The notes beneath the pieces were generated by a model, which worked only from the letters and a program-made list of their open reading frames with translations, searched no databases and was not told the origin of the DNA. A stretch of 64,000 nucleotides of DNA from assembly GCA_038243585.1 (NCBI GenBank), contig JBBSQY010000007.1:5069-69068 (forward strand). The letters run 5' to 3'. The translations under genes were made by a program, and so were the position numbers. Below are positions 555-19,122 of this stretch, in pieces (within the stretch, counting starts at the first letter, position 1; every line of letters begins with the position of its first letter). Origin of the DNA: Candidatus Sumerlaeales bacterium (lineage in GTDB: Bacteria; Sumerlaeota; Sumerlaeia; Sumerlaeales; Sumerlaeaceae).

Positions 555-3500
555 TCTGCTGGGCGCTTATGAACGACTGAACCTTGTTTACCGCATGTAT
601 ATCGAAAGCGCCTTTCCACTTAGGTATCCCGGATTATCACGTGAAAGAGCAGAGCTCTTAAAAGGCGACGGCTTCCTTTCGCAAAAGCCGCTGATAGAGC
701 CAGTACCTATCTATCCATCCTCCGGACTTGATTTACAGCAAGCAACCGAGGCGCTGGGCGAAGATTATAGCTGGTTACAAGACCTCGCTAAAAATCTGTT
801 TGAGGGCAATGACTTGTATCAGCATCAGTGGGATGCACTGCGCCTAACATATCCCCGTGACACTACAGCAAAAGACCTAGTTGTAACCACTGGCACCGGG
901 TCGGGGAAAACAGAATGCTTTTTGCTGCCAATTCTAGCGGAGATTGCTCGCGAGGCTAAACTTCAATGGCATGCGACAAATGTACCAGATCCAAAGCGAA
1001 CGTGGTGGGATAATAAACCTGCCAAGTGGACGCCGCAATGGCAACATTCGAATCGGCCGCATGCTATCCGCGCAATGATATTGTATCCACTAAATGCCCT
1101 AGTTGAAGATCAACTTCGTCGACTGCGCGCCACTTTAGACTCACCAGCATCGTTAACATGGTGGGACTCGGACCCCCAACGAAGGGGAAACCGAATTACC
1201 TTTGGCCGGTACACAAGTTTTACAAAGGTTTCCGGGAAGGCTCCCCAAAATGGAGCTGCAAGCGATTCAAAAACAGTGGCTTTGAAAAAGCACCTACAAG
1301 AACTTGCGGCACAGGAGAAGATTCTTCAAAAAAATCTGGCAGATGCTGTGGCGAACGGTAACGTGGAAGCAGCAGACAATATTACCCAACTGCAAAGCCA
1401 TTTTCCAACTATTAGCGGAGGAGAGATGTGGTCTCGCTGGGACATGCAGGCTGCGCCTCCCGATATTTTTATAACTAATTATAGCATGCTTAATGTCACG
1501 CTAATGAGAGAAGTGGAGCATAATATATTCTCAGCCACAGCAGAGTGGCTTCGTTCAGATAAACAGAACAGATTTACACTTGTAATCGATGAACTGCATA
1601 CGTATCGTGGAACACCTGGGACAGAAGTCGCTTATCTTCTTCGCGTCCTATTTCATAGATTAGGCCTCACTCCGGACTCTCCGCAGCTTCGTATCATTGC
1701 TACATCTGCAAGTTTGGATGAGGGGCAAGAGGGGCGAGAATTTTTAAAGCGTTTTTTTGGCCGAGACCAGTTTGAAGTTCTTGCTGGACAACAAGTTAAG
1801 CCAAGCGGCACTTCCCTAGCACGTATTAGTAGCCTAGGTGACACGTTCGCAAAGTTTGCAATAGCAGCTGATTCGACCCCGAACAACAACATTCACGATG
1901 AATTGCTCCTGCCCAAAGGGATTGCTTTATCGGCGGCTGAGATATTACATAGCGCTGTAACACCCAACGGTACATCCTCTACGTTAACAGACGTGTGGGA
2001 GAAACTTGGGATAGCTCTTACAATGCCAGACGTTGATGCTCCAGATGCTTTGCGCTCGGCTTGTGAAAAAGCAATGGGGGAAGTTCGTGCGACCCCAGTA
2101 AAAAAGTTAGATGAAATTCTCTTCCCTGACCATCAACCGCTCGAAGGATCTCTCTGTTCTGATGCATTACGTGGCTTTTTATATGCCATTGCTGTTGCTA
2201 CCGCTAACGGTCGTTCGATTCAACCAGTCCGCGGTCACCTTTTCTTTCAAAATTTAGAAAATCTTTGGGCATGCGTTAATCCTTACTGTGATGGAAGACC
2301 GGGAAGTAATAAAGCCACTGACGGGTACTTTTCACCTCTTGGAGCGTTGTCGCCGGTTCATAGGCTTGCCTGCACGCATTGCAGTAGCAGAGTACTCGAT
2401 CTATTGATATGCCAAACATGTGGTGAAACATTTCTAGGGGGCCACCGGTACGAAGTTAAAACGGGAAATGGTCCGCTGGAACTGTTGGCGGCTGAACAAG
2501 CAGACATTGATACTCTGCCAAATTTCGGATTAGAGCTTCAGTCTCTAAAGCATGACACTTATGGCATTTTTTGGCCCGATGCCAAGCGCACGAAGGCCCA
2601 TGGTAATGAGAAATCATTTACACAGAAATCCGGCACAAAGACCACAGTACATTGGACGCGTTATCAGATCGAATGCAGCACCGGGCGGTTGAAGGCTTAC
2701 AGCGGCAAAGATTCGACGGGGTGGGTAACTGGCTGGTATTATAAGCCGAGTGACAAAAAAGCAGCAGCGTTACCACCAATCTGTCCCCGCTGCGATACAG
2801 ATAAGCGGCGAGCAAAAAAATACCCGTCTCCTATACGAACGCATCGAATGGGCTTCGCCAAGGGTTGCCAGGTTATTACCTCGGCTCTTGTACGTGAAAT
2901 GCCTGCAGAAACTAAAAAACGTAAACTTGTGCTATTTTCGGATAGCAGACAGGATTCAGCCAAGCTGGCTGCTGGTCTTGAAATTGATCATTACAGAGAT
3001 ATGGTCCGGATGGCCCTAACATCCCATACAAACCAGTTCTGGCCAATGTTTGGCGCTTTTCTACGCGATTTAGTGAGGAGAGCGGATGGTCTGCAGGAGT
3101 GGGTTTTAGCTCTAAACCCAAAGCTCGAAAATCTACTCGAAGACCAGATTGAACCTGAACTTAAGGTCGTAGCTCAAAAGTTCCGGCGCATTTTTAAGGA
3201 AAACGCTACCGACTTGGCCGGGTTTGACGCTGAAATGACAGCTGATTCGCCTCATATTAGAGAGGAAAATCGCAGCCTTATCTCTAATTTTGGCGGTCCT
3301 ATCCCACTAAAATTAATTGTGGATCTCGTACATGCTTCCATTTTGGAACTTGGGCATAATCCCGGGGGGAATTCATATGAACTTAGCAATTTTATAGACA
3401 GCTCTCGGAGAAAACGTGCTTGGTCTGATCTTTTTGATTTTACTGTTCCAACACCGGTTAAACAAGCGGGCCTTGATATAACGGGGCTGCCCGAGCAGAT

Positions 3501-6321
3501 CAAACGCCGGCTTAAAAAGGAAATGGTCTATGCCTTATTTCCCCATAAGACACGTACGTTCGAGGGGTTAGGACTGGGAATAGTTACTTCCAAAGTAACT
3601 GACGCTGATGCGGTAATTCCTAGAGAAATTATCGACTCTGTTATTCGATCCCTTTGTACTCGAATGAGATATGCTGGAGCTGATTACTGGTGGGCAGGAA
3701 ATGAAACGGCTCTTCCGCTTGACACAAACCAGTACTTAAAAGCAGTAGGCGCAAGCAAGTCTGAAGTTACGGAACTTTTGATAGCTCATAAGGCAGCAGA
3801 ACCTGGCGACGCCGCTCTGGGCTTATTGCCAGACGGCCTTGCAATAGATTTGCCAAACGGGCAACAAAGACGGCAGTGCCCCGACTGCATGTCAGTTTAT
3901 CTCCATGATGCCGGTGGATACTGCCCTGATTGTTGCACACCAATGGTACCCATGACGGACACGCCAAGTAAAAAAGGTGATTACTACGCGTACCTTTCAA
4001 ACCGTAGTGGTGACCCATTCCGGCTCCATGTAGAAGAGTTAACTGGTCAGACGGATGCGGAGGACAGAACAAAAAGGCAACGATGGTTCCAAGAAATATT
4101 CCTCGAAGGAAATGCGGGTGAATATGACGAGTCAAAAAATAAGCGCGTACTGGGAGTAGATCTTCTCAGCGTCACAACAACAATGGAGGCGGGAGTTGAT
4201 ATTGGTGCCCTTTCCGCTGTCATGCTATCCAATATGCCTCCACGGCGGTTTAACTACCAGCAGCGGGTTGGGCGTGCGGGTCGCCGAGGTCTTGGTGTAT
4301 CCCTGGCAGTAACCTTCTGTCGAGGACGAAGTCATGATGCGTATTATTTTAATCACCCTGAAGCTATTACTGGAGACCCACCTCCTCCACCATATGTTGA
4401 TACTTCCAGTGAACCCATCTTTTTTCGTGTGCTTAACAAGGAGGTATTGCATGCAGCATGGCCGGACAGAGGTTCAGCGAATACTCCAGATAGTGGCCAG
4501 GAGTCCGACGAGGTAGCTGTTGAACGTGAAGCATCCGTGCGATCCAGGGAAAGCGTCCATGGGGAATTCGGAACCGTGGATGAATGGGCGACAAATAAAG
4601 TTACAGTCCAAACATGGCTGAATGAGCCTGCAAATGAACCAGTTTTGAGAGGCCTAATATTAGCCACCGCTCACTTGACAGTGTTATCGGAAAAACACGG
4701 GCCCGCCTTAGTGTCAAATATCGTTACGCAGCTTCGGTCCACCCTCGTATCAGAAGTAGATAATATTGTTAATGATAATCAGTTCACACAGACAAACTTA
4801 AGTGAGCGTTTAGCAAACGGGGGAATGCTGCCCATGTTCGGCTTTCCGACTCGCGTTCGATCATTATACACTAAATGGCCAAACGGTAAACCGTGGCCGC
4901 CTATTTTAGACCGGATCGAGCGAGATTTAGAAATCAGCATTAGCCAGTTCGCACCTGGGTCGGAGCTTGTAAAAGACAAGGCCATACATACAGTCATAGG
5001 TGTGGCGGCGCCAGTTCCGTTTCCTGTTGGGCCAGCAAAGCCGTCTGAAGCATTCCGCCCTCCACTATCCGAACGGAATCCCGTATTAATGGGAATATGC
5101 AGATCTTGCCAGGCGGTTGTTCAAATGAAGGCCGATGACAAGCGCATTGCCGATTTTACCTCGAGTACTGATTCTGACGTTAGGTGCCCGGTTTGCCGCA
5201 CGGACCAAAGCATGAGAATTGTCGATGCAAGAGAGCCGCTTGGCTATGTTACCGACCTGTATCCCCAAGACTACGACGGAGTATTTGAACATGCTCCACG
5301 GGCTACTTACCCTAGTATTCATATAGACTCAACTGCGGCAGTCTGGACGAAGGTTGGGAAGACAAGGATTTGGGCCTTAGATGATGTTGTTCGAAGCGTA
5401 AACGACAACGGGGGTGAAGGCGGGTTTGAGTTTTGCGAGGCGGAAATGAAGCTTTCTCAAGGAGCCCCTGGCTACACCCCTAGCCCCGGCACGTACGTCA
5501 AATATGGTACATCCCCGAACGGAAAGCTCAGAGCAATACCTGATGCTACTCCACACCGAGTTGCGTTACTTTCTCAGAGAAAGACAAACTTACTTCTCGT
5601 AGACATAACAGATTGGCCCGAAGGCGTTTCTGCCTCCCCAAATATTGCGGAAGGTAAAGCCGCGCTGTATTCTTTTGCATTTCTTCTGCGCGCGGCCGCC
5701 TGCCGCTTGCTTGATGTTGACACTAGTGAACTCGACGCGGGAATTCACCCTACTACGGTCGACGGAGAGCTGCGCGGCCAGATCTTCCTCTGCGACAAGC
5801 TCGAAAATGGCGCTGGTTACTGCACAAGATTAGCTGACCCGGAGGTATGGCAGCAACTTGTCCATCAGGTCTGGCTGGAGATTAAATCGTGGCACCATAG
5901 AGAACCATGCGACTCCTCTTGTAATCGCTGCCTTAGAGATTTCCGGAATATGTCTTTTCATGGCCTTCTTGATTGGAGGCTAGCCGTAGATATGGCGAAG
6001 CTGGCCTTTGGAGAACCTTCGTTATTTTTACAAGCGGGTGATGCATGGAATGGTTTAGCCGCAGGAGAAAATTCGTCAATTAGTCGGAACCTTATGGCCA
6101 TCCATTATAGTCCTTCGCCTGAAGCAGGATCCACGCTCCCTCTCTACTGCAAGGAACAGGAATGTACAAAGATGCTGATACTCGCACATCCGTTATGGAA
6201 AGAAAATCATCCCATGATAGTTGAAGCAATAAACGCGGCTGCGAAGTTACAATCTAATGTTCCAGTAGCAGTAGCAAACCCTTTCAGGATCATAAGGCGT
6301 CCTGGTGATTATATTGTGTAA
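547..6321 (+). CDS. druE: Large SF2 DEAD/DEAH helicase with Zn fingers and C-terminal DUF1998 (Druantia DruE-like)
   Basis: 1924 aa. Walker A TTGTGSGKTE, YPLNALVEDQ, DELH, ATSAS, TTTMEAGVDIG, QRVGRAGRR, several CxxC pairs, C-terminal CDSSCNRCL (DUF1998-type). Confidence 0.8.
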   Translation: MHDLLGAYERLNLVYRMYIESAFPLRYPGLSRERAELLKGDGFLSQKPLIEPVPIYPSSGLDLQQATEALGEDYSWLQDLAKNLFEGNDLYQHQWDALRLTYPRDTTAKDLVVTTGTGSGKTECFLLPILAEIAREAKLQWHATNVPDPKRTWWDNKPAKWTPQWQHSNRPHAIRAMILYPLNALVEDQLRRLRATLDSPASLTWWDSDPQRRGNRITFGRYTSFTKVSGKAPQNGAASDSKTVALKKHLQELAAQEKILQKNLADAVANGNVEAADNITQLQSHFPTISGGEMWSRWDMQAAPPDIFITNYSMLNVTLMREVEHNIFSATAEWLRSDKQNRFTLVIDELHTYRGTPGTEVAYLLRVLFHRLGLTPDSPQLRIIATSASLDEGQEGREFLKRFFGRDQFEVLAGQQVKPSGTSLARISSLGDTFAKFAIAADSTPNNNIHDELLLPKGIALSAAEILHSAVTPNGTSSTLTDVWEKLGIALTMPDVDAPDALRSACEKAMGEVRATPVKKLDEILFPDHQPLEGSLCSDALRGFLYAIAVATANGRSIQPVRGHLFFQNLENLWACVNPYCDGRPGSNKATDGYFSPLGALSPVHRLACTHCSSRVLDLLICQTCGETFLGGHRYEVKTGNGPLELLAAEQADIDTLPNFGLELQSLKHDTYGIFWPDAKRTKAHGNEKSFTQKSGTKTTVHWTRYQIECSTGRLKAYSGKDSTGWVTGWYYKPSDKKAAALPPICPRCDTDKRRAKKYPSPIRTHRMGFAKGCQVITSALVREMPAETKKRKLVLFSDSRQDSAKLAAGLEIDHYRDMVRMALTSHTNQFWPMFGAFLRDLVRRADGLQEWVLALNPKLENLLEDQIEPELKVVAQKFRRIFKENATDLAGFDAEMTADSPHIREENRSLISNFGGPIPLKLIVDLVHASILELGHNPGGNSYELSNFIDSSRRKRAWSDLFDFTVPTPVKQAGLDITGLPEQIKRRLKKEMVYALFPHKTRTFEGLGLGIVTSKVTDADAVIPREIIDSVIRSLCTRMRYAGADYWWAGNETALPLDTNQYLKAVGASKSEVTELLIAHKAAEPGDAALGLLPDGLAIDLPNGQQRRQCPDCMSVYLHDAGGYCPDCCTPMVPMTDTPSKKGDYYAYLSNRSGDPFRLHVEELTGQTDAEDRTKRQRWFQEIFLEGNAGEYDESKNKRVLGVDLLSVTTTMEAGVDIGALSAVMLSNMPPRRFNYQQRVGRAGRRGLGVSLAVTFCRGRSHDAYYFNHPEAITGDPPPPPYVDTSSEPIFFRVLNKEVLHAAWPDRGSANTPDSGQESDEVAVEREASVRSRESVHGEFGTVDEWATNKVTVQTWLNEPANEPVLRGLILATAHLTVLSEKHGPALVSNIVTQLRSTLVSEVDNIVNDNQFTQTNLSERLANGGMLPMFGFPTRVRSLYTKWPNGKPWPPILDRIERDLEISISQFAPGSELVKDKAIHTVIGVAAPVPFPVGPAKPSEAFRPPLSERNPVLMGICRSCQAVVQMKADDKRIADFTSSTDSDVRCPVCRTDQSMRIVDAREPLGYVTDLYPQDYDGVFEHAPRATYPSIHIDSTAAVWTKVGKTRIWALDDVVRSVNDNGGEGGFEFCEAEMKLSQGAPGYTPSPGTYVKYGTSPNGKLRAIPDATPHRVALLSQRKTNLLLVDITDWPEGVSASPNIAEGKAALYSFAFLLRAAACRLLDVDTSELDAGIHPTTVDGELRGQIFLCDKLENGAGYCTRLADPEVWQQLVHQVWLEIKSWHHREPCDSSCNRCLRDFRNMSFHGLLDWRLAVDMAKLAFGEPSLFLQAGDAWNGLAAGENSSISRNLMAIHYSPSPEAGSTLPLYCKEQECTKMLILAHPLWKENHPMIVEAINAAAKLQSNVPVAVANPFRIIRRPGDYIV

Positions 6322-7497: not shown

Positions 7498-9579
7498 TTA
7501 AGCGTTGTTTCGCCTCAAATCATCCAGAAACTCCGACGCCGGGTTCGTACCCGTAACTAAGAGAAAATCCCGTGCCCTGGTACACGCCACGTAGAGCAAG
7601 TGACGCTCAGTATTATAAACTTCTTCCAGGTCAGAATCGTCCACAACGTTTTCTATCCGGCTTGCCAAGGGTATTACTTCATCATCACAGGCCATTACGG
7701 CCACGGCGCGAAACTCAAGACCCTTAGCTAAGTGCATCGAGCAGATCGAAACGTGACCGCTCGTGGTATCCATTCGTTCATCCAGGATCTTATACGGTAA
7801 GCCAGTAGCTTCAGCCGCAGCTTGGGCACGAGGCAGCTGCTCCGCCGACCGTACAAAGATTCCCATTTCATGAGGCGTCACCCCGTTGGCACTCTTGTCC
7901 TTCAGCCACTCCCCAACAGCCACAGATTCATTTTCCGCATTGTCGTACGTCGCTACTTCTGGAGCCGGACCATTAAAGACAGAGATCGCGCCCCGGCGCT
8001 CCTCCACATTTCCATCAACATCAGCAATCTGCGGATCAAGAAGCAGGTCCGCCTGGCGGCGTATCTGATGAGAGGTGCGATAGTTGATCTTCAGCGTTTT
8101 TGATCTTCCGCGGATATCCACACCCAACGACTTCCAGGAGAACGGCTGCTGAAAAATCCGCTGCCCCAGATCCCCGGCTAAGAACAGTGCATTCGGCCGA
8201 GCCCCCGCCAGAGCTGCCAGAAACCTGAGCTGCGGGATACTCACATCCTGAGCTTCATCGACCACGATAAAATCAAACGGTGGATTTTTCGAACCGCTTA
8301 TTACCTCGGCCAGCCGTGTAAACATCTCCGCCTCGGTGATCATGCCGCTATCCTTCAGCCTCAGCCGCACTTTTTCGAAGATGCTCCAAAGCACAACACG
8401 CTGTTTCTCCGGCAGCCTGGTCTTCCGGCCCAGCCGCGCCACATCCCGGTAATCTTGCCAGCTGTTCAGCTGCCAGGCATCCACCACTTCCCACCATTCA
8501 GACATGAGGAAATGCGGGGAGAATTTATGATCCTTAACCGTCGTGGCCGCCTCCGCTAACAGCGCACGGATATAGGGCTGCGTCGCAAGCTCCGTCTTTC
8601 CCACATTGCCTTCAAACAGGCGGCGCCCGATCTCACCCATCGACGCCACTTCCAGTCGCTCACCCATCCTGGGCGTATTACTGATCAACCGGCGGAGTTT
8701 TGTCATCAGAGCATTTGCCAGGGTATCAGAAAATGTCGTCAACAGCACCCGCGCATTAGGATGTGCCTTTGCCAGATACACCGCCCGGTGCAGGGCCACA
8801 ATAGTCTTGCCAGTGCCGGCCGTCCCAGCCACTCGGGCCGGACCGTTATAATCCCGCTCGACCATCTGCTTCTGTGCCGGGTGAAGAAATATGGTCCATT
8901 TCTCCCACGGATAATCAAGGGCCTGTTCCAGTTCCTCCACATTTGACATAACACGAAACCGGCGCTGGGCATCCGGGTGTGCAAAGGGATCAGTTCCTGC
9001 CGGTATAGGTTCAGGTGCTACCGGCTTGTTGCCCATAGCCAGCTGTAGCAATGCCTCCCCGGCCTCATGAGGCAGATGCTCCGCAACTTCCAACAGCGTA
9101 TCCTCGTTCGCAGCCAACACGTCTGCCAGCCACTCCTTGGGCACGCCATACCCCAGAAGATCATCCTCGGATAAATGCGCAAACAGCAAAGGCTTCGGTG
9201 GCGCCGGCTGGTCCACGTGCACGTACCGTGGGATTTCTATCTCCCGCACCATCTCCCGGATTTCAACAAACTGCGCCGCGCCTGTCGTTGGGTGCGCTTC
9301 CAGCTTTCGCCGTTCCGCCCATTGATAAGCTTTATCGTGATGATCGACGTAGCAGAGCAAAAGACTCGCCTCCGTCTTGTGGAGGATCAAACGGATATCC
9401 TTGTTAACATAGATGGAATTGAAACGCTTATCCTTGATCTTCTCCAGCTTGTGAAACTTCAACCCTGGATGAGACGGGTCTGCCTGAAGATCATAAGCTG
9501 TAAGTTTCACCGCCTTTTGCTCCTCATTGGTGAGGCGAGCAAGACTTTCAGTGAAGGTATCGGAGATGCGAAAGTTCAC
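7498..9579 (-). CDS. UvrD/Rep-like SF1 helicase with N-terminal RelE/ParE-like domain
   Basis: N-terminus F.ESLARL...PGLKFHKL...SIYVNKDIRLIL...YVDHHDKAY is RelE-like. Helicase motifs GTAGTGKT, VVDEAQD, GDLGQRI, NYRT, HLAKGLEF, LYVACTRAR. Confidence 0.85.
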   Translation of the reverse strand: MNFRISDTFTESLARLTNEEQKAVKLTAYDLQADPSHPGLKFHKLEKIKDKRFNSIYVNKDIRLILHKTEASLLLCYVDHHDKAYQWAERRKLEAHPTTGAAQFVEIREMVREIEIPRYVHVDQPAPPKPLLFAHLSEDDLLGYGVPKEWLADVLAANEDTLLEVAEHLPHEAGEALLQLAMGNKPVAPEPIPAGTDPFAHPDAQRRFRVMSNVEELEQALDYPWEKWTIFLHPAQKQMVERDYNGPARVAGTAGTGKTIVALHRAVYLAKAHPNARVLLTTFSDTLANALMTKLRRLISNTPRMGERLEVASMGEIGRRLFEGNVGKTELATQPYIRALLAEAATTVKDHKFSPHFLMSEWWEVVDAWQLNSWQDYRDVARLGRKTRLPEKQRVVLWSIFEKVRLRLKDSGMITEAEMFTRLAEVISGSKNPPFDFIVVDEAQDVSIPQLRFLAALAGARPNALFLAGDLGQRIFQQPFSWKSLGVDIRGRSKTLKINYRTSHQIRRQADLLLDPQIADVDGNVEERRGAISVFNGPAPEVATYDNAENESVAVGEWLKDKSANGVTPHEMGIFVRSAEQLPRAQAAAEATGLPYKILDERMDTTSGHVSICSMHLAKGLEFRAVAVMACDDEVIPLASRIENVVDDSDLEEVYNTERHLLYVACTRARDFLLVTGTNPASEFLDDLRRNNA

Positions 9580-10166
9580 TAGATGTTCTTTATCAGTTGC
9601 TCGACCAATTGATAGACTGTGGTACCCGTACTTGTAGGCCAGGCTTCTTTGCGGTTCACGTCTCGGGCCTTTGCATTTGTTATGGCATTGCGGATTCTAT
9701 CCTTGGTAAAGTGGTTACCATTAATATGTTTATCATAATCCGGAATGTGATGCTTCAGTTTATCAGTGCAATCTTTGGAACTGCGGACGGCGATATTCCT
9801 AAAATGCAGGAGTAGCCAGTACTCGAATTTAGGACTACTAACAGCAAGACCATATTTTGGAGACGTGCCTGCCCACAATGCACATTCCTTTATATCCGCA
9901 GTTTTCCACGAATCAGTATCAATGACGATCCAGGCAAAGTCCCCTTTACGAAGCCCTTCCTGTTGAATGTATTTCTTAATCCGCTTCAGTACGTATTCGG
10001 GTGAAGTGCGATTTCTTTCAGAAAGACATTTAACTCGAACGATTGTACTATCGCTGTTAAACAACGCGAAATACTGCTCCTCGGTTTCAATGCCTTCGGT
10101 AGCTATAATGAACAACTGACGATAACGGCGGAAAGGAGCTGGTCTCTTAAAACGACTGATTCCCAC
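9579..10166 (-). CDS. rloB: RloB-family (TOPRIM-like) protein
   Basis: ATEG..TE..YF, IVIDTD, SSPKFEYWLLLHF motifs. Start/stop overlaps with both neighbours. Confidence 0.85.
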   Translation of the reverse strand: MGISRFKRPAPFRRYRQLFIIATEGIETEEQYFALFNSDSTIVRVKCLSERNRTSPEYVLKRIKKYIQQEGLRKGDFAWIVIDTDSWKTADIKECALWAGTSPKYGLAVSSPKFEYWLLLHFRNIAVRSSKDCTDKLKHHIPDYDKHINGNHFTKDRIRNAITNAKARDVNRKEAWPTSTGTTVYQLVEQLIKNI

Positions 10167-11506
10167 TAATCTTGTCCAGACATTGATTTAATGTCTGTTA
10201 AGCAAGTGTTAACAAGTACCTTTGGAATTCCTCCCATACGCCCCTGAAGGTAGCTCTTTTGAATGTCTTTGTCACTTCTTACATCTTTATACTCGCTAAA
10301 AGAATGCAATGTGGATGCACCATTTTTAGATTTTTCGGTGATCCACATTTCGTCTCTTCGCAAAATTTCCTGATCCATCAGCATGACGTCGTGGGTAGTC
10401 AAAAACAGTTGGGCGCGGGAATTAGGTGAGCAACTCGTTAAAAAAAGTTGGACGAGCCTTCTTGTCATCAGTGTGTGCAAGCTGCGATCCAGTTCATCGA
10501 TGACAAAGACCTTTTTGCTATTTTTAGCACAAATGGCAAAAAATGCTGGGAGCAAATCTAAAAGTCGTTGAGACCCGTCGGACTCTTGGCGCAAATCAAA
10601 TTTAATTTCTTCGCCCTCCTGACTCGTATGGAAGGTGACGAGTTTCTTCGCGCTTATTTCTCCCTCTTGCCTCGTAATAATAATTCTTTCACTAGTTCGG
10701 CCAACTTCAATCCGGGCAGCATCTCCAGCCTTTAACTTTTCACGAATTTCTGTCTTGAAATTCTCTGGAATTAAAATAGAATCAAATGGCACTTCTTCCC
10801 CGCCTATACTATGGATTCCAGTATCCAATTTTGGCAGAATAGCATTCATAATTGTATAGAGTGAGTGTTCCTCATCCAAAAATTGATCAAATCTAGCGTA
10901 TTGACTGTCCGGGGAAACGAGTTCCAGAGTGTCGTCGAACCAGTCAAAGACGGGCCTGAAAGTTTCTACTTTTTGGGAGATTGCATTGGTAAGGAATAAT
11001 TGATTTTCCCGGGTGCCTTGAAAAGCAAATTGTAAGAATTTCTGATCCGGTAATGCAGAATCAAATTTGCATTTGCCGGACTTTCGGTGATATAACACCT
11101 TCTCGCCAGCAGGTTGTATCTCTGTAAGTTTTTCTTCCAGTACAGTTTTTCTTGTCACGGAAAAACTGAAAATATGAATCCGATCCTCAACCAAAATAGA
11201 GAAAGAAAACTTTGAGGGACTGTCTTTATATTTAGCTTGAAGCTTAAAGGGTTCAACCAAAATAAAGGCATCGGGCCTGGTGCCATCAACAACAAGATCT
11301 TTCACAAAGCTCATAGCCCTGAAAAACGCGGTTTTCCCCGACGCGTTTGCCCCGTAAATCGCCGCTACTGGCAAAATTTTCAGTTTGTATTTAGAAAGTT
11401 GAGGAAGTCTTTCTCCATGCTGCCTCTCACGGCTTGCGGCGGTAGAGAATACGGTTTTGTCCCGAAACGACATCCAATTTTCAATTTGCAGTTCTATTAA
11501 CACCAA
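10166..11506 (-). CDS. RloA/AbiLi-like AAA (AAA_21-type ABC) ATPase
   Basis: IENWMSF, YGANASGKT, ESDGSQRL, VIDELDRSLH, LTTH, YLQGRMGGIP. Lies directly upstream of rloB. Confidence 0.85.
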   Translation of the reverse strand: MVLIELQIENWMSFRDKTVFSTAASRERQHGERLPQLSKYKLKILPVAAIYGANASGKTAFFRAMSFVKDLVVDGTRPDAFILVEPFKLQAKYKDSPSKFSFSILVEDRIHIFSFSVTRKTVLEEKLTEIQPAGEKVLYHRKSGKCKFDSALPDQKFLQFAFQGTRENQLFLTNAISQKVETFRPVFDWFDDTLELVSPDSQYARFDQFLDEEHSLYTIMNAILPKLDTGIHSIGGEEVPFDSILIPENFKTEIREKLKAGDAARIEVGRTSERIIITRQEGEISAKKLVTFHTSQEGEEIKFDLRQESDGSQRLLDLLPAFFAICAKNSKKVFVIDELDRSLHTLMTRRLVQLFLTSCSPNSRAQLFLTTHDVMLMDQEILRRDEMWITEKSKNGASTLHSFSEYKDVRSDKDIQKSYLQGRMGGIPKVLVNTCLTDIKSMSGQD

Positions 11507-11593: not shown

Positions 11594-14419
11594 TTAAACC
11601 CTAAACACTTTCATCACTTCATCGCCTAGGTGGTTGATCACTTTCACCGCGATTCGTCCGGTTTCCGGTTTGGCGAACGGGCGGGAGGTGTCGCTGTTTA
11701 GTGTATCCCAGGCTTCTTGGTCGATCTCGGCTTTGAGCGTTGTCTTTAGCGACTTATATGGGTCGTTTGCGCCGAGGAAGTACGCCTGTCTTACGAAGAA
11801 ACTTTCTTCGTTATAGTCCGTATCGATGAACCAGCAGGCGATTCCGTCGGCGCCGTCGCTTCTGACTTCTCCTGATGCCGGATGAAAGACGTCTACGCCG
11901 TTCACCCTTACCTGGATTCGGTCGTTGTCGGCCGGCAGGATTTCCACGTCAGGCTCGCCGAAGATCACGAAAAGGTTGCCCTTGCCGGTATTTTTCAGGT
12001 CCGTTGCCATGTGGAGATCAGCGTTCATTCTGGCCTTCAGCACCGGCAGACGGCCCAGCTTACTGAACTCCGTGCTGTGGGCATCATAGGCGAAGGCGCA
12101 ACTGATCAACACATCAAAATCTGCGTCGCCAGCTTCGCGCGCGGCCTCTACCAGGTCCGGGCGTGATACAGTCCCGAACTCCGGACCAAGGAAAACGGCC
12201 GCGCGCTTCTCCTTACCGTTGCCATCGCCGCCGCTTTCCATGTACCGGCCTTCAGCGCAGATACGGTCTCCTGCCCATGGTTTTAGCGATGTGAAGTTGA
12301 TCTTATCTTTCTTGTCCGATTGTTGCACGCCGGATGTCCGCAGGTTCTCAAGGATCATGGAAACAAAGGTTTGTCCTTCACCATAGGCCCCAGAGCCATC
12401 GGCAATCCGGTCGATCAATTCGTCATTTTCATCCAGACCAAGCACCCGGTGGGGAGACAGGCTTTCCACGGTGAAAGGTCCGGCCACGCGGACTTTCTTT
12501 TTATCTTCATAGGGTTTGTCATAAAGATATTCGGTATCGGCGCGGGCGGCGATAGACGCATCGATCTCTTTCTGGCCGGCGATGCGGTTTTCCCACCACT
12601 CCTTGTGAAGAGTGTGGGCTTCCATAGGCCAGGATGGTTCCGCCTCCCGGGGTATCTCCCATTCTTCCCAGGACTTGCCCAAGGTCTTGTTTAGCTTCTC
12701 CCTGATGGGTTCAAGGATTTCCTGGAACTGGTCCCAGATCACATCGATCTCTGTATTATTAGCGATGGATTTCAGGGTGATGTGAGGCACACGCTCATAA
12801 ACGAACCCATGGCGTATATCGCCTCGAGTAGATGCCGATGAAGGTTCGGCGCGGGTGATCTCAGCTTCCTTCTGTTGACCTTCGGAGGAGTCGGCGAGCA
12901 AATAATATGGATATCGGGCCCCCATAATGCGCGCCCGCGCAAGGGCCATAGCTACGCGGGAAGTGTCTACGGTGATCCAACGCCTTCCTAATTGTTCAGC
13001 GACATATGCGGTCGTACCTGATCCCATTGTTGGATCAAGGACGAGATCGCCTGGATCGGTCGCCATCAAAATACAACGCTCAATAACTCGAGGGGATGTC
13101 TCTACTACATAATTCAAACCGACTCCAATTTGCATCGAATCCCACCGTTCTGTTAGGGGAATTACTGCGAAATCGCCAACAAACCTTTTATATCTTACTG
13201 TTTTTCCAGTACTTACTATCCGATCGCTTTTGATAAGTCGACGTAATCCCAATTCTGTAGTTTTCCAGTGAGAACCCCTACGTGTCTCGTAAATCTTTCC
13301 TTGAAAAAGAAGCTCGCGACTCGCGTTTGGTGATTCACCGTCCGAAAACAAAGGAGCTGCTTGCAATCGTTTCAGAAAATCGACAGAAGATGTAGCTTTA
13401 CTTACAGCCTCTTTCTTAAACGGGATAGACTCATGCTGATCATATCGCTCGAGAGACTTCTCTCCCTCCTTTCGCTCTAGGTAAAGCTGCCGAAACTTAG
13501 TACTGGCTCTGTTTTTCCCATACCAGATTATGTAGTCTTGGGTAGACTCGATGAAGTTGCCTTCAATTCCGCCAGTCTTCTGAAATCCGATAAGGACAAT
13601 AAAGTTGTCTGATCCGAAAATCTCATCCATCATTACTCGGACACGGTGGACATTTTCGTCTCCAATCTGGACAAATACTGATCCAGAGTCGGTCAGTAGA
13701 TCTCTCGCCAGTATTAGTCGATCACGCAAATAAGTCAGGTATGAGTGGATACCATCTCGCCATGTATCGCGAAATGCTCTCACCTGCTCCGGCTCACGGG
13801 TGATGTTGTCGGCCTTGCCGTCCTTCACGTCGCGGTTGGTGGTGCTCCACTGGAAGTTGCTATTAAACTTAATGCCGTAAGGGGGATCAAAGTAGATACA
13901 CTGTACCTTGCCTCTCAGCCCCTCGCGCTCGGCCAGAGATGCCATCACCTGGAGGCTATCGCCCAGGATCATGCGGTTTGCCCAATGGGCATCGTGCTGG
14001 TAGAACTCCGTCTTGGCGTCGGAACTCGGCAATCCGTTAAAGTCCGCAAACAGATCAACCTGTTCATCTTCCTCTGGTGGCGCGGCTTTTTTGCTCTGGC
14101 GCACCAGGTCATCAATGAGAACCTTGGGATGAATCTTCTCCTGGATATAAAGCGGCGGCGCCTGCACTACCAGGTCTGACCAATCCTGCTGATCCTTTCC
14201 GCGCCACATCAACTGCGGATCCAAATCCACATTGCGCTGTTCCTTCTCCTGCTCCAGCCCTTCACTACCCCGCCCGTAAATCACCTTAACAGGGTCATGC
14301 TGCTCCTTGGCGACAATAGACTGATACTCAGCCGTAGGAATGTTTTTACGAGTCGCATCCTCATGGACGAGCGTCTCGATAGATTTTGCTGCGGTGGAGG
14401 TGATTCTCTTTGGGGGCAT
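11594..14419 (-). CDS. mod: Type III R-M methyltransferase subunit (beta-class amino-MTase)
   Basis: Catalytic FDPPYG precedes SAM-binding LDPTMGSGTT, with a variable TRD in between. Co-oriented with res. Confidence 0.9.
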   Translation of the reverse strand: MPPKRITSTAAKSIETLVHEDATRKNIPTAEYQSIVAKEQHDPVKVIYGRGSEGLEQEKEQRNVDLDPQLMWRGKDQQDWSDLVVQAPPLYIQEKIHPKVLIDDLVRQSKKAAPPEEDEQVDLFADFNGLPSSDAKTEFYQHDAHWANRMILGDSLQVMASLAEREGLRGKVQCIYFDPPYGIKFNSNFQWSTTNRDVKDGKADNITREPEQVRAFRDTWRDGIHSYLTYLRDRLILARDLLTDSGSVFVQIGDENVHRVRVMMDEIFGSDNFIVLIGFQKTGGIEGNFIESTQDYIIWYGKNRASTKFRQLYLERKEGEKSLERYDQHESIPFKKEAVSKATSSVDFLKRLQAAPLFSDGESPNASRELLFQGKIYETRRGSHWKTTELGLRRLIKSDRIVSTGKTVRYKRFVGDFAVIPLTERWDSMQIGVGLNYVVETSPRVIERCILMATDPGDLVLDPTMGSGTTAYVAEQLGRRWITVDTSRVAMALARARIMGARYPYYLLADSSEGQQKEAEITRAEPSSASTRGDIRHGFVYERVPHITLKSIANNTEIDVIWDQFQEILEPIREKLNKTLGKSWEEWEIPREAEPSWPMEAHTLHKEWWENRIAGQKEIDASIAARADTEYLYDKPYEDKKKVRVAGPFTVESLSPHRVLGLDENDELIDRIADGSGAYGEGQTFVSMILENLRTSGVQQSDKKDKINFTSLKPWAGDRICAEGRYMESGGDGNGKEKRAAVFLGPEFGTVSRPDLVEAAREAGDADFDVLISCAFAYDAHSTEFSKLGRLPVLKARMNADLHMATDLKNTGKGNLFVIFGEPDVEILPADNDRIQVRVNGVDVFHPASGEVRSDGADGIACWFIDTDYNEESFFVRQAYFLGANDPYKSLKTTLKAEIDQEAWDTLNSDTSRPFAKPETGRIAVKVINHLGDEVMKVFRV

Positions 14420-14421: not shown

Positions 14422-15267
14422 TTAGTTCTCGTCTTCGGCAGCACTTGGTTTTTTTGTATCGATGTTGGGTAGCGATTTTTCCAGGACTGAGACAACTCCG
14501 TCCACATGCTCATGGAGATCATCATTGATACTCTGTCCCAAAGAGTCAAGGAGGACTTCAACACCTTCACGGCGTGCGACCTTGGCAGCCGGAACGAAGT
14601 CGCTGTCGCCGGTTACCAGAATTATTGTATCAATTTGTTTCTTTAGCGTCAGTGTAGAAATATCAACTCCGATGCGCATATCCACACCCTTTTGACGGAG
14701 CCCCAGGCGAACATCATTGGGAGTTACCGCCTGCCAGGAAGTAACTATCTTTTGGAGCTTGGCAGCTTGCTCCTGCGTTAAAGGAACGGGCTCTTCGCCT
14801 GTTTCCGCTTTTACGATAGCGCCTTCCAGCACATGGACCCAGTCTCGCAGGCGAAGTAGCCGCTTTGTTGTGTCTGTATTAGCTATATGCCAACCGTCTT
14901 CCCGGACCACCTTGCCAAGTCGCAAAGCAAACTTTCGCCTTGTTCGAAGTTCGCGGAATAGCTCGTGGCGAAAGATTGCTTCAGGCGTTCTGTCAAAATG
15001 GATCTGACGGTTCTCCAGTGGGTGGTGTGCCGTTCCGTCGTATGGTAACGCATCATAGTAGAAAAGTCGATACACGTGATCTAGCCAACGTTCATCACTG
15101 GGATGGGCAGACTCCTCCACCAGCTTAAGCACGTGCTCTTTACAAAGAGTCACGGCCCAGTCTGCCACCTCTTTTGGGGTCGTGCATCTATGATGACCGA
15201 CGATCTTCGATACCCGCCGAAGAAAGAATGCGCCATCAATAAGAATGGCAATTCGCCTAATCCGCAT
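14422..15267 (-). CDS. NYN (PIN-like, LabA/DUF88) ribonuclease-domain protein
   Basis: ILIDGAFF, FYYDA, QKGVDMRIGVD, TGDSDFVP, HVDG acidic tetrad. RBS-like AGGAG upstream of the ATG. Confidence 0.9.
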   Translation of the reverse strand: MRIRRIAILIDGAFFLRRVSKIVGHHRCTTPKEVADWAVTLCKEHVLKLVEESAHPSDERWLDHVYRLFYYDALPYDGTAHHPLENRQIHFDRTPEAIFRHELFRELRTRRKFALRLGKVVREDGWHIANTDTTKRLLRLRDWVHVLEGAIVKAETGEEPVPLTQEQAAKLQKIVTSWQAVTPNDVRLGLRQKGVDMRIGVDISTLTLKKQIDTIILVTGDSDFVPAAKVARREGVEVLLDSLGQSINDDLHEHVDGVVSVLEKSLPNIDTKKPSAAEDEN

Positions 15268-15290
15268 AGCTACACTCCTGATCAGGCAAT

Positions 15291-15351
15291 AAAAAAGCCC
15301 CAGGATTTCGGGAACGCTCCGGATTGGTGAGCGCCTCTACTCTCAAGGGGC
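15291..15351 (-). ncRNA. Candidate structured leader/small RNA upstream of the NYN gene
   Basis: Minus strand GCCCCUUGAGAGUAGAGGCGCUCACCAAUCCGGAGCGUUCCCGAAAUCCUGGGGCUUUUUU. Outer stem GCCCC/GGGGC, inner stem GCGCUC/GAGCGU, AGUA/GAA internal loop, U6 tail. Confidence 0.55.
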
Positions 15352-15579
15352 GGATACATAAATTTGGTGTTAATTTAAACAAACCACATACAGTAAAATT
15401 TCGGTTCGCAATAACTTTTCCGACACCTATAGAAAGATTATGCGAGGAGCCACCTGAGAGGCGTTCATAGGTTTCGGGCGAAAAGGATGGTCTCAAAGTT
15501 GGTGTGTTCAAAGTTGTATTTTCCCTGTTAATAAAATTTTAGTGACTACCAGCTCGGGAGGCGTTTGACGCAAGAGAGG

Positions 15580-18500
15580 CTAAACAACAACCTCTTCAAC
15601 CTGAGCATCTATCATTTCATTAAAAGCGGCTTCCACCTTATCACCGAACTCGGCTTCCATGGCAAAGACCTCTTTAAACTCGGCAAAGGCCCACCGTCCA
15701 TATTGCTTTAAATGATTAACGCCGGGTATCCAGTAGGCGTCCATAGTCTGTTTCTTAAACTTGGCATCTTCGCCGCGGTACCCTTTGATCTCCACTACGA
15801 GATGCAGCGGATCCTCTTGGCCATCGTCCACAAGAACAATAAAGTCTGGCCGGTACATGCGGTTTTCAGAACCGAACCGGTATGGCACTTCAAAGCCCAT
15901 GCTATGGTTTTTCACATAAGCTTTGACCCGGGGATGAGTTTCCGCGACCCGGCAAAATTCAGCCTCCCAGTCGCTATCGAGGATGACCCAATTAACATGA
16001 CAGCGATCGGGCGAGGTTTTCCACCGTTCCGTCCTGGAAGTATTGAAGAGAACTGAACTTGTGGAACCTGACGGGCGGTATGGATCAACCACTGCCATTA
16101 TAGGTGAAACGTCTGCCATGGCCAGGGTAATGCCGGTTGTTATCTTTTCGCAGGCCATGTCGGCCAGTTCCTGGTACATAAGCTGGGCAGGGTACGTGCC
16201 GCCAGTGCAGACAAGGCAGGTATCCAGCCACTGCTTGGTGACGCGCCGCATATCATTAATGAGATGAACCTTGGGATCATCCCCCGGCTTACGCCACTTG
16301 GTATATACCAGCCGCTTGGCCAGATGAAAGATCAGAGTGGAAGTACGCATGTCTTCCAAATGCTTTAACGTAAGATCGATCCCCTCACCGATAATACCAT
16401 AGACTTGAACCTGAGACGGACCGACGAGGCGCGGATTCAGTTCGAGAACTGAGTCTTCATCATATTTCGCGATGAGCCGCTCTGATGGCAATTCAACGCG
16501 GTAACCCTGCACCCGAGGGAAAACAATTTCCAGGGCATCGCGATCCGGCCGTATGGCTTTGACGGTAATTGTCTCGCGGGGTGGCTGGGGTTTAGCGACT
16601 ACAGGTTTGGCGTTGAAGTCGAACGGAATGCCAAGGACGTCCGCATACTCGACATTAAAAAGTCCATCTTCGTTGAGATCATAAGACTGCCGGCGCAATG
16701 CGCGGCCAATGACCTGTTCGCACAAAAGCTGAGTTCCAAATGCGCGCACGCCAAGCACGTGGGTAACGGTATTGGCATCCCAACCCTCCGTCAACATAGA
16801 AACCGACACAACACACCGGATGGCTTCACCCAGCCGACCTTTTTTGCCTACGGTGTTCATGACCTCTCGAAGCAGCTCATTGTCCGGGATTGAATCGGCA
16901 TCTATAGATGTGCCGGTTCTGGCGATGATTTCGCGGCGGAATCGTTCTATTTCGTGGGCGGCTATCTTGCGGAAGTTGTCGTCAAGCGCCTCCCCGGACT
17001 CAAGCTGGGCACTATCGATAAGAAGGGTGCGTGGCTGCGGGTGTGGGTTATCATACTCATCGAAGTTGCGGAAAAGTTCCAAGCTACCGCGGACATGACG
17101 GCCAAGACCATCTTCGCCCAATTGCTCAAACCCGGATATGTACTCATATACAAGTTTTGAAATGGCGGTGTTTTGACAGACGACAATGAAGCAGGGCGGA
17201 ACATCAATGCCGCTCTCCTGCCAGAGTTCAAAGGTGGACTTGTAGTGACCGTACAGCGCCTCCAATGCGCTTTTCAGCAGTGTTGGCAGACTCAAAGGAT
17301 CTAGTGATCCCGATTTTGCGCGGCTACTTTTCGGCAGTTTTACTTTACCTTTGCTAAGGTGTTTCCACAAGTCACGGAACATCGGCATCTCGGTTCCCGG
17401 CAGGTTATCTGCAACGGGGACGCGGGGCAACTTAACAATGCCGCTCTCGATGGCATCCATAAGGGAAAAGTCGCTCATGGTCCAGGGAAAGAGAGTTCCC
17501 TCGGCATACCCAGAGCCACTGAGGAAAAAAGGTGTGGCTGATAGATCGACAACGGCATTTAGGCCGAGCTTCCGCTTTACGATTTCAATGCCAGAGATCC
17601 ACAGCCGGGCCGCCTCAGTGTTCTCTTTGGCTTCTGAATCACTCTTTTCGACGGCCACTTCATCGGAGTCACCCGGCTTTTCCCTGTAACAATGATGGGC
17701 CTCGTCGTTGAGTACCATAATGTTCCTGGTGCCCATAAGTGACGGCATCACCCGCTGGATCATCTTCCCTTCGGTTTCCAAGGTCTGAATGTCGGTTCCT
17801 GTGCGTCCCTTCAGCAGCGCGCGATTGCCGGCAGCAATGTCCATGGTCTCGCGGAGCTTAAAGGAATGATAGTTCGTAATGACGATGTTGGCTTTGCCGA
17901 GATCCGGGAGCATGTCTGTCGGAACGAGTTCTCGGGACTTGTAGTAGCTGTCAGGATCAGCTGGCTGCAGTACGCGAAGCCGGTCTTTAATGGTAATGCC
18001 GGGTGTAACAATGAGGAAACCACGGGTGAACTTGTTGCTGCCGGGCCGGCGCACTGCATTAACCGTCTGCCATGCAATGATCATGGCCATTACCGTAGTT
18101 TTGCCGGCACCAGTAGCCAGCTTAAGGGCGATACGCATCAGCTCCGGGTTGGCGTCGCGGTTAGCGTTGGTGATATGCTCCAGGAACTCCTTGTCCACTT
18201 TGCTTTGCGGCGCGACCTCCGTAAGCCATATCAGGGTTTCAGCCGCCTCTACCTGGCAAAAGAATGGTCGTACGCCGTTGAATTCATACTGACGCCAGTG
18301 TTGAAGGAGACGCGCTGTTTCCGGAGTTACCTGCCAGTCGTTTGGGTTTGGGAGCTTGCGCCAGAAATCGACTTTTTGCCGCAATGCATTAATGACAGGA
18401 TTAGGGTCATACTTCTGTTTTTCCGTTGAGACGCCATCACTATCCAGATTAAGCTCAACCTGATCCTTACTGCCAGTCCGCTTCCTGGATTTGGGGATTG

Positions 18501-18636
18501 GTGTGATGAACTCAGCAATCCGCCTGCGCTCGACAATCTGCTGGGTAGGCTGGCCTTCGGTGTCGAGTTCCCAATGACGGGCTGGGTACTCGTAAGGCGA
18601 GTTCAAGATCGGCTGTTCGAAAAAGCGGTTTTCCAT
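15580..18636 (-). CDS. res: Type III restriction endonuclease/helicase subunit
   Basis: KLATGAGKT, NDEAHH, LSATP, QVIGRALR, C-terminal PDFIV...VEIKG nuclease motif. Start placed at MENRFF (18636) rather than 18672. Confidence 0.9.
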   Translation of the reverse strand: MENRFFEQPILNSPYEYPARHWELDTEGQPTQQIVERRRIAEFITPIPKSRKRTGSKDQVELNLDSDGVSTEKQKYDPNPVINALRQKVDFWRKLPNPNDWQVTPETARLLQHWRQYEFNGVRPFFCQVEAAETLIWLTEVAPQSKVDKEFLEHITNANRDANPELMRIALKLATGAGKTTVMAMIIAWQTVNAVRRPGSNKFTRGFLIVTPGITIKDRLRVLQPADPDSYYKSRELVPTDMLPDLGKANIVITNYHSFKLRETMDIAAGNRALLKGRTGTDIQTLETEGKMIQRVMPSLMGTRNIMVLNDEAHHCYREKPGDSDEVAVEKSDSEAKENTEAARLWISGIEIVKRKLGLNAVVDLSATPFFLSGSGYAEGTLFPWTMSDFSLMDAIESGIVKLPRVPVADNLPGTEMPMFRDLWKHLSKGKVKLPKSSRAKSGSLDPLSLPTLLKSALEALYGHYKSTFELWQESGIDVPPCFIVVCQNTAISKLVYEYISGFEQLGEDGLGRHVRGSLELFRNFDEYDNPHPQPRTLLIDSAQLESGEALDDNFRKIAAHEIERFRREIIARTGTSIDADSIPDNELLREVMNTVGKKGRLGEAIRCVVSVSMLTEGWDANTVTHVLGVRAFGTQLLCEQVIGRALRRQSYDLNEDGLFNVEYADVLGIPFDFNAKPVVAKPQPPRETITVKAIRPDRDALEIVFPRVQGYRVELPSERLIAKYDEDSVLELNPRLVGPSQVQVYGIIGEGIDLTLKHLEDMRTSTLIFHLAKRLVYTKWRKPGDDPKVHLINDMRRVTKQWLDTCLVCTGGTYPAQLMYQELADMACEKITTGITLAMADVSPIMAVVDPYRPSGSTSSVLFNTSRTERWKTSPDRCHVNWVILDSDWEAEFCRVAETHPRVKAYVKNHSMGFEVPYRFGSENRMYRPDFIVLVDDGQEDPLHLVVEIKGYRGEDAKFKKQTMDAYWIPGVNHLKQYGRWAFAEFKEVFAMEAEFGDKVEAAFNEMIDAQVEEVVV

Positions 18637-19122
18637 AATTCCATCCCTGCTGCCATTGCGGCTGCGCATCATGCACTAAGTCGTGGCCAGCTGGCACCGT
18701 ATGTCAACTGGTTGCAACCATAAAAGGTACCGTTATTATACCTGCACCCATATCGCTTCCAAGGGCGTTCCACTGGGTGAAAGGCGTTCTCGGCGTCATC
18801 TGGACAGAATGCTGTTTCTGAGATGGAATTGACGAGCGTATATAGTGGGTTTTCTCACAAGTACAAAACCGACCGAGCCCCTGGCAGCCTGCAGACAGCA
18901 TCTGCTTAATTCCCGCAGCAATTATTGCCCTACAGACATCGCAGCCGCACCCAGCGTTACCATGAACTTCAACTGCAGATTAGCTAAACGTAGTATGACT
19001 GAGCCCTACTCTCCGTAGAAGCCCTGCTCACAATGCGCTGACGCGGCAGCGGCGCCTGAGATTTGTGTGCAGCCCTACTAAATACTCCCAGACACACCAG
19101 CCACAACAGCGAGGGAGCTACC

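Follow-up and report, generated by a model that had tools for sequence, protein, structure and literature searches.

What is the small hairpin-forming element that precedes a NYN nuclease gene in the genome of Candidatus Sumerlaeales bacterium, and what might it do for this gene? The element lies in a 64,000-nt stretch of contig JBBSQY010000007.1 (positions 5,069 to 69,068 of the forward strand; the whole of this stretch is hereafter called the window), within the 312-nt intergenic region between res, a restriction gene of a type III restriction-modification (R-M) system, and the NYN gene, which is followed by the methyltransferase gene mod. A sequence-only reading of the window had described it as a 61-nt structure with two stems, an AGUA/GAA internal loop and a U6 tract, located about 24 nt upstream of NYN and about 230 nt from the stop codon of res, and had regarded it as a candidate RNA antitoxin within a defence module. 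We recovered this element to the base, with 23 nt between the end of its U6 tract and the ATG of NYN (15267) and 228 nt between the stop codon of res (15580) and its stem. It comprises a short 5' tail (AUCC), a 55-nt two-helix hairpin and the U6 tract, and spans 61 nt when counted from the first G to the last U. Comparison with other loci reveals that this leader is a real, conserved and structured RNA that is tied to the NYN gene and represents more than a plain terminator.

Conservation and covariation of the leader RNA

Relatives of the NYN protein (P0001) are abundant, with 6,788 proteins at E <= 0.001 among 8,000 candidates scored. Our comparison set consisted of 80 genomic loci of NYN homologues, the best 80 of at least 571 confirmed stretches, which stem from the Verrucomicrobiota, the Alpha-, Beta- and Gammaproteobacteria, the Acidobacteriota, Planctomycetota, Chloroflexota, Bacteroidota, Binatia and other groups. 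A regular expression with two anchors produced 65 matches just 5' of NYN, one of which (in L065) was spurious, so that 64 of the 80 loci contained the motif. In an alignment of the window with 51 clear instances (A2; 52 sequences), RNAalifold predicted ten pairs, nine of them with compensatory changes. When a 15-pair structure was scored on the same alignment, 92.9% of the cells were able to pair, as compared with 82.7 +/- 0.6% in shuffles, and compensatory double changes were detected in 11 of the 15 pairs (72 cells versus 14.9 expected), lending support to both helices, whereas every slid control paired at 55% or less. One of the 15 pairs (22-55) is of a non-Watson-Crick type in 33 of the 52 sequences and belongs to a non-canonical loop.

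A covariance model of the leader (R1), run on both strands of the window and the 80 loci (696,802 nt), returned 71 matches at E <= 6.4e-5, including one in the window, 69 that lie directly 5' of NYN (69 of the 80 loci) and one extra copy in L025. In the alignment fitted to this model (A3; 73 matches), compensatory change extends to 14 of the 15 pairs, establishing that a covarying motif is present upstream of NYN homologues. Among 999 cells, moreover, we counted 29 G-U and only 2 A-C combinations; therefore, it is the NYN sense strand that folds, in keeping with an RNA. Conservation also includes the loops, with A18, G19, U20, A21, G50 and A51 each conserved in at least 90% of the 52 sequences. 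The AGUA/GAA loop is near-invariant in the close clade, with co-varying pairs on its flanks, and at the sequence level it shows the arrangement typical of the sarcin-ricin loop or loop E, with AGUA opposite GAA between two helices. Both the loop E-like signature noticed in the sequence-only reading and its view that the element is more elaborate than a plain terminator are thus borne out by the conserved loops, the covariation and the R1 matches in the window and most loci.

The 11 loci without an R1 match mainly contain NYN genes of the Bacteroidota type. In seven of them, a script identified a stem-closed hairpin ending at a T-run, and an equivalent hairpin was also present by eye in L066 and L069, with L053 and L060 remaining ambiguous. 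The variants of the Bacteroidota type keep the sequence GCC-N-A-(N)-CC in the 3' strand and are devoid of the AGUA motif. Overall, the leader has stayed with NYN in many phyla and at NYN identities between 66% and about 35%, with the start codon of NYN located 3-72 nt past the hairpin in the relatives. We also considered whether the conserved AUCC might pair with 16S rRNA or the start region of NYN and abandoned this idea, because a match of four bases is too short and the MRIRR codons explain the likeness to the coding start.

Searches that started from the motif instead of the gene were also informative. Within the window, the motif pattern matches once, as compared with no match in 100 shuffles, and the entire genome (3.43 Mb) likewise holds a single match. 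R1 found a single match, adjoining NYN, in each of three whole genomes searched, and four of the five strong matches in the same phylum (the window's own included) have a NYN gene downstream. In metagenomes, the letter pattern used for the initial selection proved to be unspecific, with only 7 of 80 fetched loci R1-positive at E <= 0.001 among the matches listed; within this set, all five strong matches (41.8-84 bits) have NYN directly downstream and the two weak ones do not. Finally, 7 of 12 pattern matches in viral contigs were R1-positive (31-45 bits), and in one of them (L114) the hairpin leads a NYN gene. These viral matches had been pre-selected by their conserved letters, which inflates their R1 scores.

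No family in Rfam 15 reached its threshold for the leader. At E <= 10, five matches were obtained over positions 15200-15640, none of them to the abiF motif, and the NYN protein lacks a match to Abi_2. The nearest family is TEG147 (RF03535), which resembles the leader in sharing its GAGAGUAG...CGAAAUC internal loop, a U-tail and a hairpin length of ~60 nt; its loop was classified as sarcin-ricin by JAR3D, as mentioned in PMC13085918. Scores for this family stay below its gathering score of 56.1 bits: the window reaches 28.9 bits, all 13 NYN-linked relatives tested fall short, and the best score seen is 46.6 bits for a viral copy without NYN (L116). The relation between TEG147 and the leader is therefore probably one of distant homology or of a shared module and not one of membership. 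In Staphylococcus aureus, Teg147 is reported as a 55-60-nt transcript that was detected by RNA-seq and maps to a genomic island (PMC5826253, PMC3053349). We considered it as experimental support for the NYN leader and dropped it, because both of its flanking genes in N315 are on the opposite strand according to the supplementary table of PMC2873960, which also lists a partial repeat near lukE. A description of the NYN leader RNA was not found in the papers searched, where the supplements of motif-discovery papers could still hold one, and the main text of Weinberg 2017, taken without its supplements, has no occurrences of NYN, LabA, sarcin, loop E or restriction. Collectively, these results define a candidate new RNA family with a wide distribution, support from covariation and a coupling to an uncharacterised nuclease family.

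The NYN cassette and its genomic context

The hairpin appears to be framed by transcription signals. In a profile of 70 instances aligned on the invariant A of AUCC (position 0), the relatives show a TAnnAT-like -10 element at positions -15 to -10, with frequencies of.46 (T),.41 (A),.43 (a),.59 (A) and.69 (T) around one indifferent position (n), as well as TTGAC-like letters that peak at about -37 to -33, leaving a 17-nt spacer. Such a sigma-70-type promoter implies a transcription start at -3 to 0, i.e., at the foot of the hairpin, where the A at position 0 is conserved in 100% and the U at +1 in 99% of the instances. A start at this site would leave 4-7 nt ahead of the basal stem P1, too few for a competing upstream fold, so that the leader does not have the layout of a riboswitch-type attenuator. 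Past the hairpin, all 70 instances carry a U-rich tract, with the 7 nt after the stem containing at least five U in 56, four in 13 and three in one of them, and with UUUU as the first four bases in 46. In the window, the GC-rich GCCCC/GGGGC stem followed by U6 is predicted to act as an intrinsic terminator, and a consensus scan marks 15313-15298 as terminator-like.

The protein encoded behind the leader matches Pfam NYN (PF01936) above the cut-off, with the match confined to residues 190-258. Its AlphaFold2 model (pLDDT 89.7) resembles the structure 2qip (Z 16.6) and the NYN domain of MARF1 (Z 16.4), with Foldseek in agreement, and six aspartates (Asp 11, 72, 196, 202, 221 and 223) do not vary among 38 homologues. 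In this model, the NYN fold and its acidic active site are intact, which marks the protein as a predicted nuclease. The domain is split by a family-specific insertion of ~115 residues (about 75-190) with the motifs YRxFYYD...HNP...DF...RKxALRLG...W, whose RKxALRLG segment is basic and invariant. This insertion is common to all seven hairpin-linked NYN proteins aligned, including those of the Bacteroidota and Neisseria types, and is absent from a paralogue in the same genome (on contig 43) that also lacks an R1 match. It is likely to be the RNA-binding part of the protein, as judged from these seven related sequences and a single one without it. A profile search against the sequences of solved structures gave nothing significant (best E 0.082), and the passages of PMC5499597 that deal with bacterial LabA-type NYN or NYN.COG1432 proteins describe their function as unknown. 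The paralogue (25821-26222 of contig 43; 1465-2331 of L091) is a canonical NYN protein of 288 aa with a PF01936 score of 126.4 bits and a long C-terminal extension.

The features of the window are listed in the following table.

Table. Leader RNA, flanking signals and genes of the defence island in the window
Feature	Position	Strand	Basis and remarks
NYN leader RNA, 65 nt	15291-15355	-	Sequence, fold; covariance model R1 77.1 bits, E 1.9e-21
5' tail AUCC	15355-15352	-	Sequence; conserved
P1, GCCCC/GGGGC	15351-15347 with 15301-15297	-	Sequence
2x2 internal loop UU/CU	above P1	-	Sequence
P1b, GA/UC, 2 bp	15344-15343 with 15305-15304	-	Sequence
Sarcin-ricin-type loop, AGUA opposite GAA	15341-15338 opposite 15309-15307	-	Sequence
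P2, (G)CGCUC/GAGCG(U)	15334-15329 with 15319-15314	-	Sequence
Apical loop, 9 nt, ACCAAUCCG	15328-15320	-	Sequence; conserved AUCC inside
U6 tract	15296-15291	-	Sequence
Putative promoter region of the leader	15356-15400	-	AT-rich; assigned by positional homology only
Spacer, res stop to leader promoter	15401-15579	-	AT-rich; ~150 nt longer than in relatives
Spacer, U-tract to NYN start codon	15268-15290	-	AGGAG Shine-Dalgarno sequence (15279-15275) within a small palindrome, CCUGAUCAGG
NYN (LabA-like, PIN-like fold) nuclease gene, 281 aa, P0001	14422-15267	-	Pfam PF01936, 45.8 bits (cut-off 24.2)
res (type III Res subunit: helicase and endonuclease)	15580-18672	-	Pfam ResIII and RE_endonuc; upstream of leader
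mod (type III methyltransferase)	11594-14419	-	Pfam N6_N4_Mtase, 113.3 bits; PADLOC MTase_III PDLC03632, 1397.6 bits
AbiLi/AbiLii pair (AAA_21 and RloB)	10166-11506 and 9579-10166	-	PADLOC, 262.6 and 84.8 bits; downstream of mod
GajB-like UvrD helicase	7498-9579	-	PADLOC/Pfam; downstream of AbiLi/AbiLii

In addition to its Pfam matches, the Res protein belongs to NF046055 of NCBIfam (BPTD_3080 family restriction endonuclease; 1329.1 bits, cut-off 800), so that Pfam, NCBIfam and PADLOC together identify both the helicase-nuclease and the methyltransferase of a type III R-M system. The usual gene order of such systems is mod-res, making the order res-NYN-mod unusual. The ATG of mod lies 2 nt past the NYN stop codon, and mod is predicted to be translationally coupled to NYN, a coupling that the sequence-only reading had also noted, and to form part of its transcription unit; therefore, the leader also stands before mod. 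The segment between res and the hairpin spans only about 60-90 nt in the relatives. In the window, the corresponding spacer has no Rfam match of note and shows no significant fold within a 326-nt stretch that unites spacer, leader and NYN start (15260-15585; z -0.12), and an 84-aa open reading frame (ORF) overlapping it (15257-15511) has no Pfam family. Together with the AbiLi/AbiLii pair and the GajB-like helicase, res, NYN and mod form a defence island. The N-terminus of the helicase shows a weak HigB-like match (E 0.0013).

The linkage with res and mod is clade-specific. In a Pfam scan, for which the second-nearest ORF was taken in L051 and L062, the upstream neighbour was res-like in 25 of 78 loci (24 ResIII and one truncated RE_endonuc), and the downstream neighbour was an N6_N4 methylase in 26 of 77, often overlapping or abutting the NYN stop codon. 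The remaining loci, which include the entire clade of 220-250-aa NYN proteins with 35-42% identity, have unrelated neighbours, such as bioB and mutS in a Neisseria, der in a Kingella, recA or dprA, and at some of them integrase, resolvase, Bro-N, S24 repressor, HNH or DUF4062 genes point to mobile or defence-related surroundings. Given these unrelated neighbours around many loci, the RNA and NYN themselves constitute a conserved module. In a member of the Bryobacterales (L022), a bacterial Pnkp RNA-repair enzyme (772-3855; PNKP_ligase 496.9 bits, AAA_33, Metallophos) is encoded directly 5' of the leader and NYN.

The cassette of RNA and NYN is patchily distributed and mobile, and its settings range from a type III R-M family and conjugative plasmids to a viral contig and groups of housekeeping genes. 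Within the same phylum, R1 matched 7 of 75 genomes, and within the same family none of 12, and the Neisseria-type NYN was found in 7 of 81 sampled Neisseriaceae. According to tblastn, the NYN subfamily is present on 167 plasmid records, including 136 from Campylobacter, 14 from Xanthomonas and 8 from Aeromonas, with 129 of the 167 plasmids being conjugative. R1 detects the Xanthomonas plasmid copy (28.8 bits) and gave no match for the Aeromonas and Campylobacter plasmid copies, whose equivalent hairpin was seen by eye only. Plasmid copies from Campylobacter coli (L118), Xanthomonas (L119) and Aeromonas (L120, pAsa5) lie near transfer genes (MobP1 relaxase, TraG). In two loci, tRNA genes were noted within a few kb of res-NYN-mod or NYN cassettes (L002, 421-492; L008, 5211-5294). 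Genes for tRNAs are common at integration hot spots.

Possible roles of the leader RNA

The role to which we assign about even confidence is that of a negative leader RNA, i.e., a promoter-proximal attenuator that is recognised by NYN and would hold down the nuclease together with the coupled methylase. The cassette would thus consist of a promoter, a structured hairpin with a terminator and the NYN gene, with mod coupled behind NYN in the window. Transcription would start 0-3 nt before the invariant AU, and the first ~65 nt of the transcript would fold into the composite hairpin, whose GC-rich base could act, together with the U-tract, as an intrinsic terminator. Because an antiterminator does not appear to be possible upstream, most transcripts should end as short RNA, and NYN (and mod) would be expressed by read-through only. 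NYN itself may recognise the conserved loops of the RNA via its basic insertion, so that the leader would keep nuclease levels low by attenuation, and it is conceivable that the leader also binds NYN in trans. This arrangement of a promoter, a terminator hairpin with invariant loops and then a nuclease gene fits a device that is read by a protein instead of an alternative RNA fold. Conserved hairpins in a nuclease's own mRNA serve as feedback handles in the autoregulatory leaders of rne, rnc and pnp as well as in eukaryotic Regnase-1, which acts on its own stem-loop; unlike the NYN leader, these examples are not part of mobile cassettes, and their transcripts do not begin with a terminator.

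A role in cis is favoured by three sets of loci. First, only 3 and 7 nt separate the end of the matched motif (GGGGCUUU) from the start codon in L057 and L055, respectively, and the ribosome-binding site must therefore lie within P1, suggesting that in some relatives the leader may in addition occlude the ribosome-binding site within the 3' strand of this stem. Second, L025, in which mod is separated from NYN, contains a second hairpin of another subtype (5007-5085; loop ...GGUGAUCGCGAGC) with a promoter of its own (TTGATG-17-TAGAGT) about 400 nt 5' of mod. Third, an orphan hairpin in L087 (1501-1568, minus strand; 57.7 bits) lies 24 nt 5' of a non-NYN ORF, which we take, by eye, to be YgfZ/GcvT-like. 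Hairpins in front of non-nuclease genes speak for cis-regulation no less than for an antitoxin function. An added, antitoxin-like role in trans is plausible in view of the implied excess of the RNA, the mobility of the cassette, the rarity of NYN without the RNA and the existence of RNA-only copies in phage-like sequences.

Several observations weigh against a NYN-recognised negative leader. The L087 hairpin shows that the element can persist without NYN, as searches of its 91%-complete genome with P0001 and Pfam PF01936 yielded no NYN gene. Similarly, six of the seven R1-positive viral copies have no NYN within 1.5 kb. These orphans fall into three sequence families, comprising L110 and L117 (the latter with a tRNA gene ~110 nt upstream), L116 (adjoining a serine integrase) and a group formed by L109, L115 and L111, which is found near a small terminase subunit gene, lacks the U-tract and shows a compensatory P1 change between its members. 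Teg147, from the nearest Rfam family, is not followed by any same-strand gene and, hence, leads no NYN gene either. As for the promoter, the upstream DNA of the window is AT-rich, as the sequence-only reading had stated, and promoter elements are clear in the relatives, but a consensus scan detected no sigma-70 site directly 5' of the window's hairpin, only poor hexamers at the expected spacing. The fold of the leader is unremarkable on its own (minimum free energy -21.8 kcal/mol, z -0.82), with 39 of 200 shuffles folding equally well, so that the case for more than chance is made by comparison with other loci. There, covariation was counted on kin sequences, and the shuffle control ignores shared ancestry; the slid controls, which remove this effect, agree with the covariation result. 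Finally, binding of the leader by NYN is conjectural, and the correspondence between insertion and hairpin comes from seven sequences set against one, all of them kin.

The main rival to the negative-leader reading is a purely trans-acting RNA antitoxin, which we regard as possible but doubtful. In the manner of type III toxin-antitoxin (TA) systems or of AbiF-RCd22, short RNA produced in excess would bind NYN and silence a toxic RNase, and phage infection or loss of the cassette would lower RNA levels and free the nuclease, resulting in abortive infection or addiction. Consistent with this idea, the conserved terminator, for which no antiterminator seems possible, implies that the RNA outnumbers the mRNA; the cassette has a patchy distribution, is mobile and, in the window, belongs to a defence island; and there is an asymmetry in that NYN proteins of the subfamily almost never occur without the RNA, with RNA-only copies found chiefly in viral contigs. 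Phages carry pseudo-antitoxin RNA against ToxIN. However, there is neither a repeat array nor any sign of processing units, copies of the hairpin precede non-nuclease genes in L025 and L087, and the viral orphans had been pre-selected by conserved letters, with some of them lacking a U-tract and the one in L117 perhaps representing a tRNA terminator.

The known systems of this kind resemble the NYN cassette in part. In type III TA systems (ToxIN, CptIN, TenpIN), the antitoxin RNA is a tandem repeat array cut by the toxin. The order of RNA gene, terminator and endoribonuclease gene on mobile DNA is the same here, with the terminator between RNA and nuclease gene being a predicted one; the nuclease fold differs, and there is a single hairpin per locus, with Tandem Repeats Finder detecting no repeats in 15200-15650 at a score of 30. 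A literal type III TA system was excluded on this one defining feature. The type III-like logic that the sequence-only reading had suggested therefore holds for the placement of RNA and terminator before the RNase and fails for the tandem repeat array, with the non-nuclease downstream genes also weighing against it. Another parallel is RCd22, the abiF motif RNA of Clostridioides difficile, which is described in PMC12373285 as lying 5' of the toxic, RNA-targeting AbiF, lowering its expression in cis and neutralising it in trans. Both systems place a structured RNA directly 5' of an RNA-targeting (or, in the case of NYN, predicted RNA-targeting) defence protein, whereas the RNAs differ, and AbiF has an Abi_2/HEPN-like and NYN a NYN/PIN-like fold.

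It is unlikely that the leader is a TEG147-type hairpin which mobile DNA carries along as a promoter-terminator or an insulator, which may have to do with integration sites and which has no specific tie to the NYN protein, the association reflecting co-inheritance. Such an element could account for the orphans that adjoin a serine integrase (L116), follow a tRNA gene (L117) or lie in the vicinity of a small terminase subunit gene (L111), and Teg147 itself is located in a genomic island and partly repeated near lukE in the table cited above (PMC2873960). Against this stand the single copy per genome searched, the NYN genes behind all five strong metagenome matches among the matches listed and the retention of the hairpin with NYN over the entire identity range and many phyla, with both stems changing by compensation.

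We consider it improbable that the RNA is a positive partner of NYN, such as a cofactor, scaffold or specificity element required for its action. The strictness with which a single RNA accompanies a single nuclease subfamily in different phyla and the sequence-invariant loops are compatible with such a function, for which HEARO and IscB set a precedent, as a nuclease-associated RNA motif that was later found to be a functional partner. However, the variable parts of the leader are its paired stems, leaving no variable segment for a guide, and the terminator and leader position fit expression control better.

It is likewise improbable that the hairpin mimics the ribosomal S-turn (23S sarcin-ricin loop or 5S loop E) and that NYN is a ribosome-directed toxin held by a decoy RNA. 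The consensus CAGUACG...CCGAACC does resemble an S-turn, NYN is a PIN-like nuclease, and the PIN toxin VapC20 cuts the sarcin-ricin loop (work cited in PMC5499597). However, at the position of the GAGA tetraloop of the rRNA the leader continues as a helix, AGUA is missing from the Bacteroidota-type variants, and the resemblance may reflect a common RNA module only. If the decoy reading were true, RNA-only phage copies would act in counter-defence, disarming NYN as decoys in the course of infection, and the pair of RNA and NYN in res-NYN-mod operons would represent an RNA-level back-up or controller of restriction.

The view that the leader is merely the intrinsic terminator of res, which could invoke the terminator-like site at 15313-15298 downstream of this gene, is contradicted by the comparative data and hardly credible, given its distance of 228 nt from the res stop codon, the presence of the same element at loci without res (only 25 of 78 upstream neighbours are res-like), the position of the relatives' promoter between res and the hairpin and a conservation of loop sequences that would be needless in a plain terminator.

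A fixed RNA partner for LabA-type NYN proteins

RNases with a leader or an RNA partner are already known, and the mechanism suggested here is a proposal for how the NYN cassette may use this logic. RNA motifs beside nuclease or defence genes have previously turned out to be working parts of their systems, as seen for the nuclease-linked motif HEARO. The abiF motif, likewise first noticed beside a defence gene, later proved to be functional, as reported in PMC12373285. The fixed RNA partner described in this work provides a first concrete experimental handle on the bacterial LabA-type NYN family. It points to an RNA-controlled nuclease that may travel with restriction systems, conjugative plasmids and phages and, in one family of type III R-M systems, to a methylase that would be expressed from behind the same leader.

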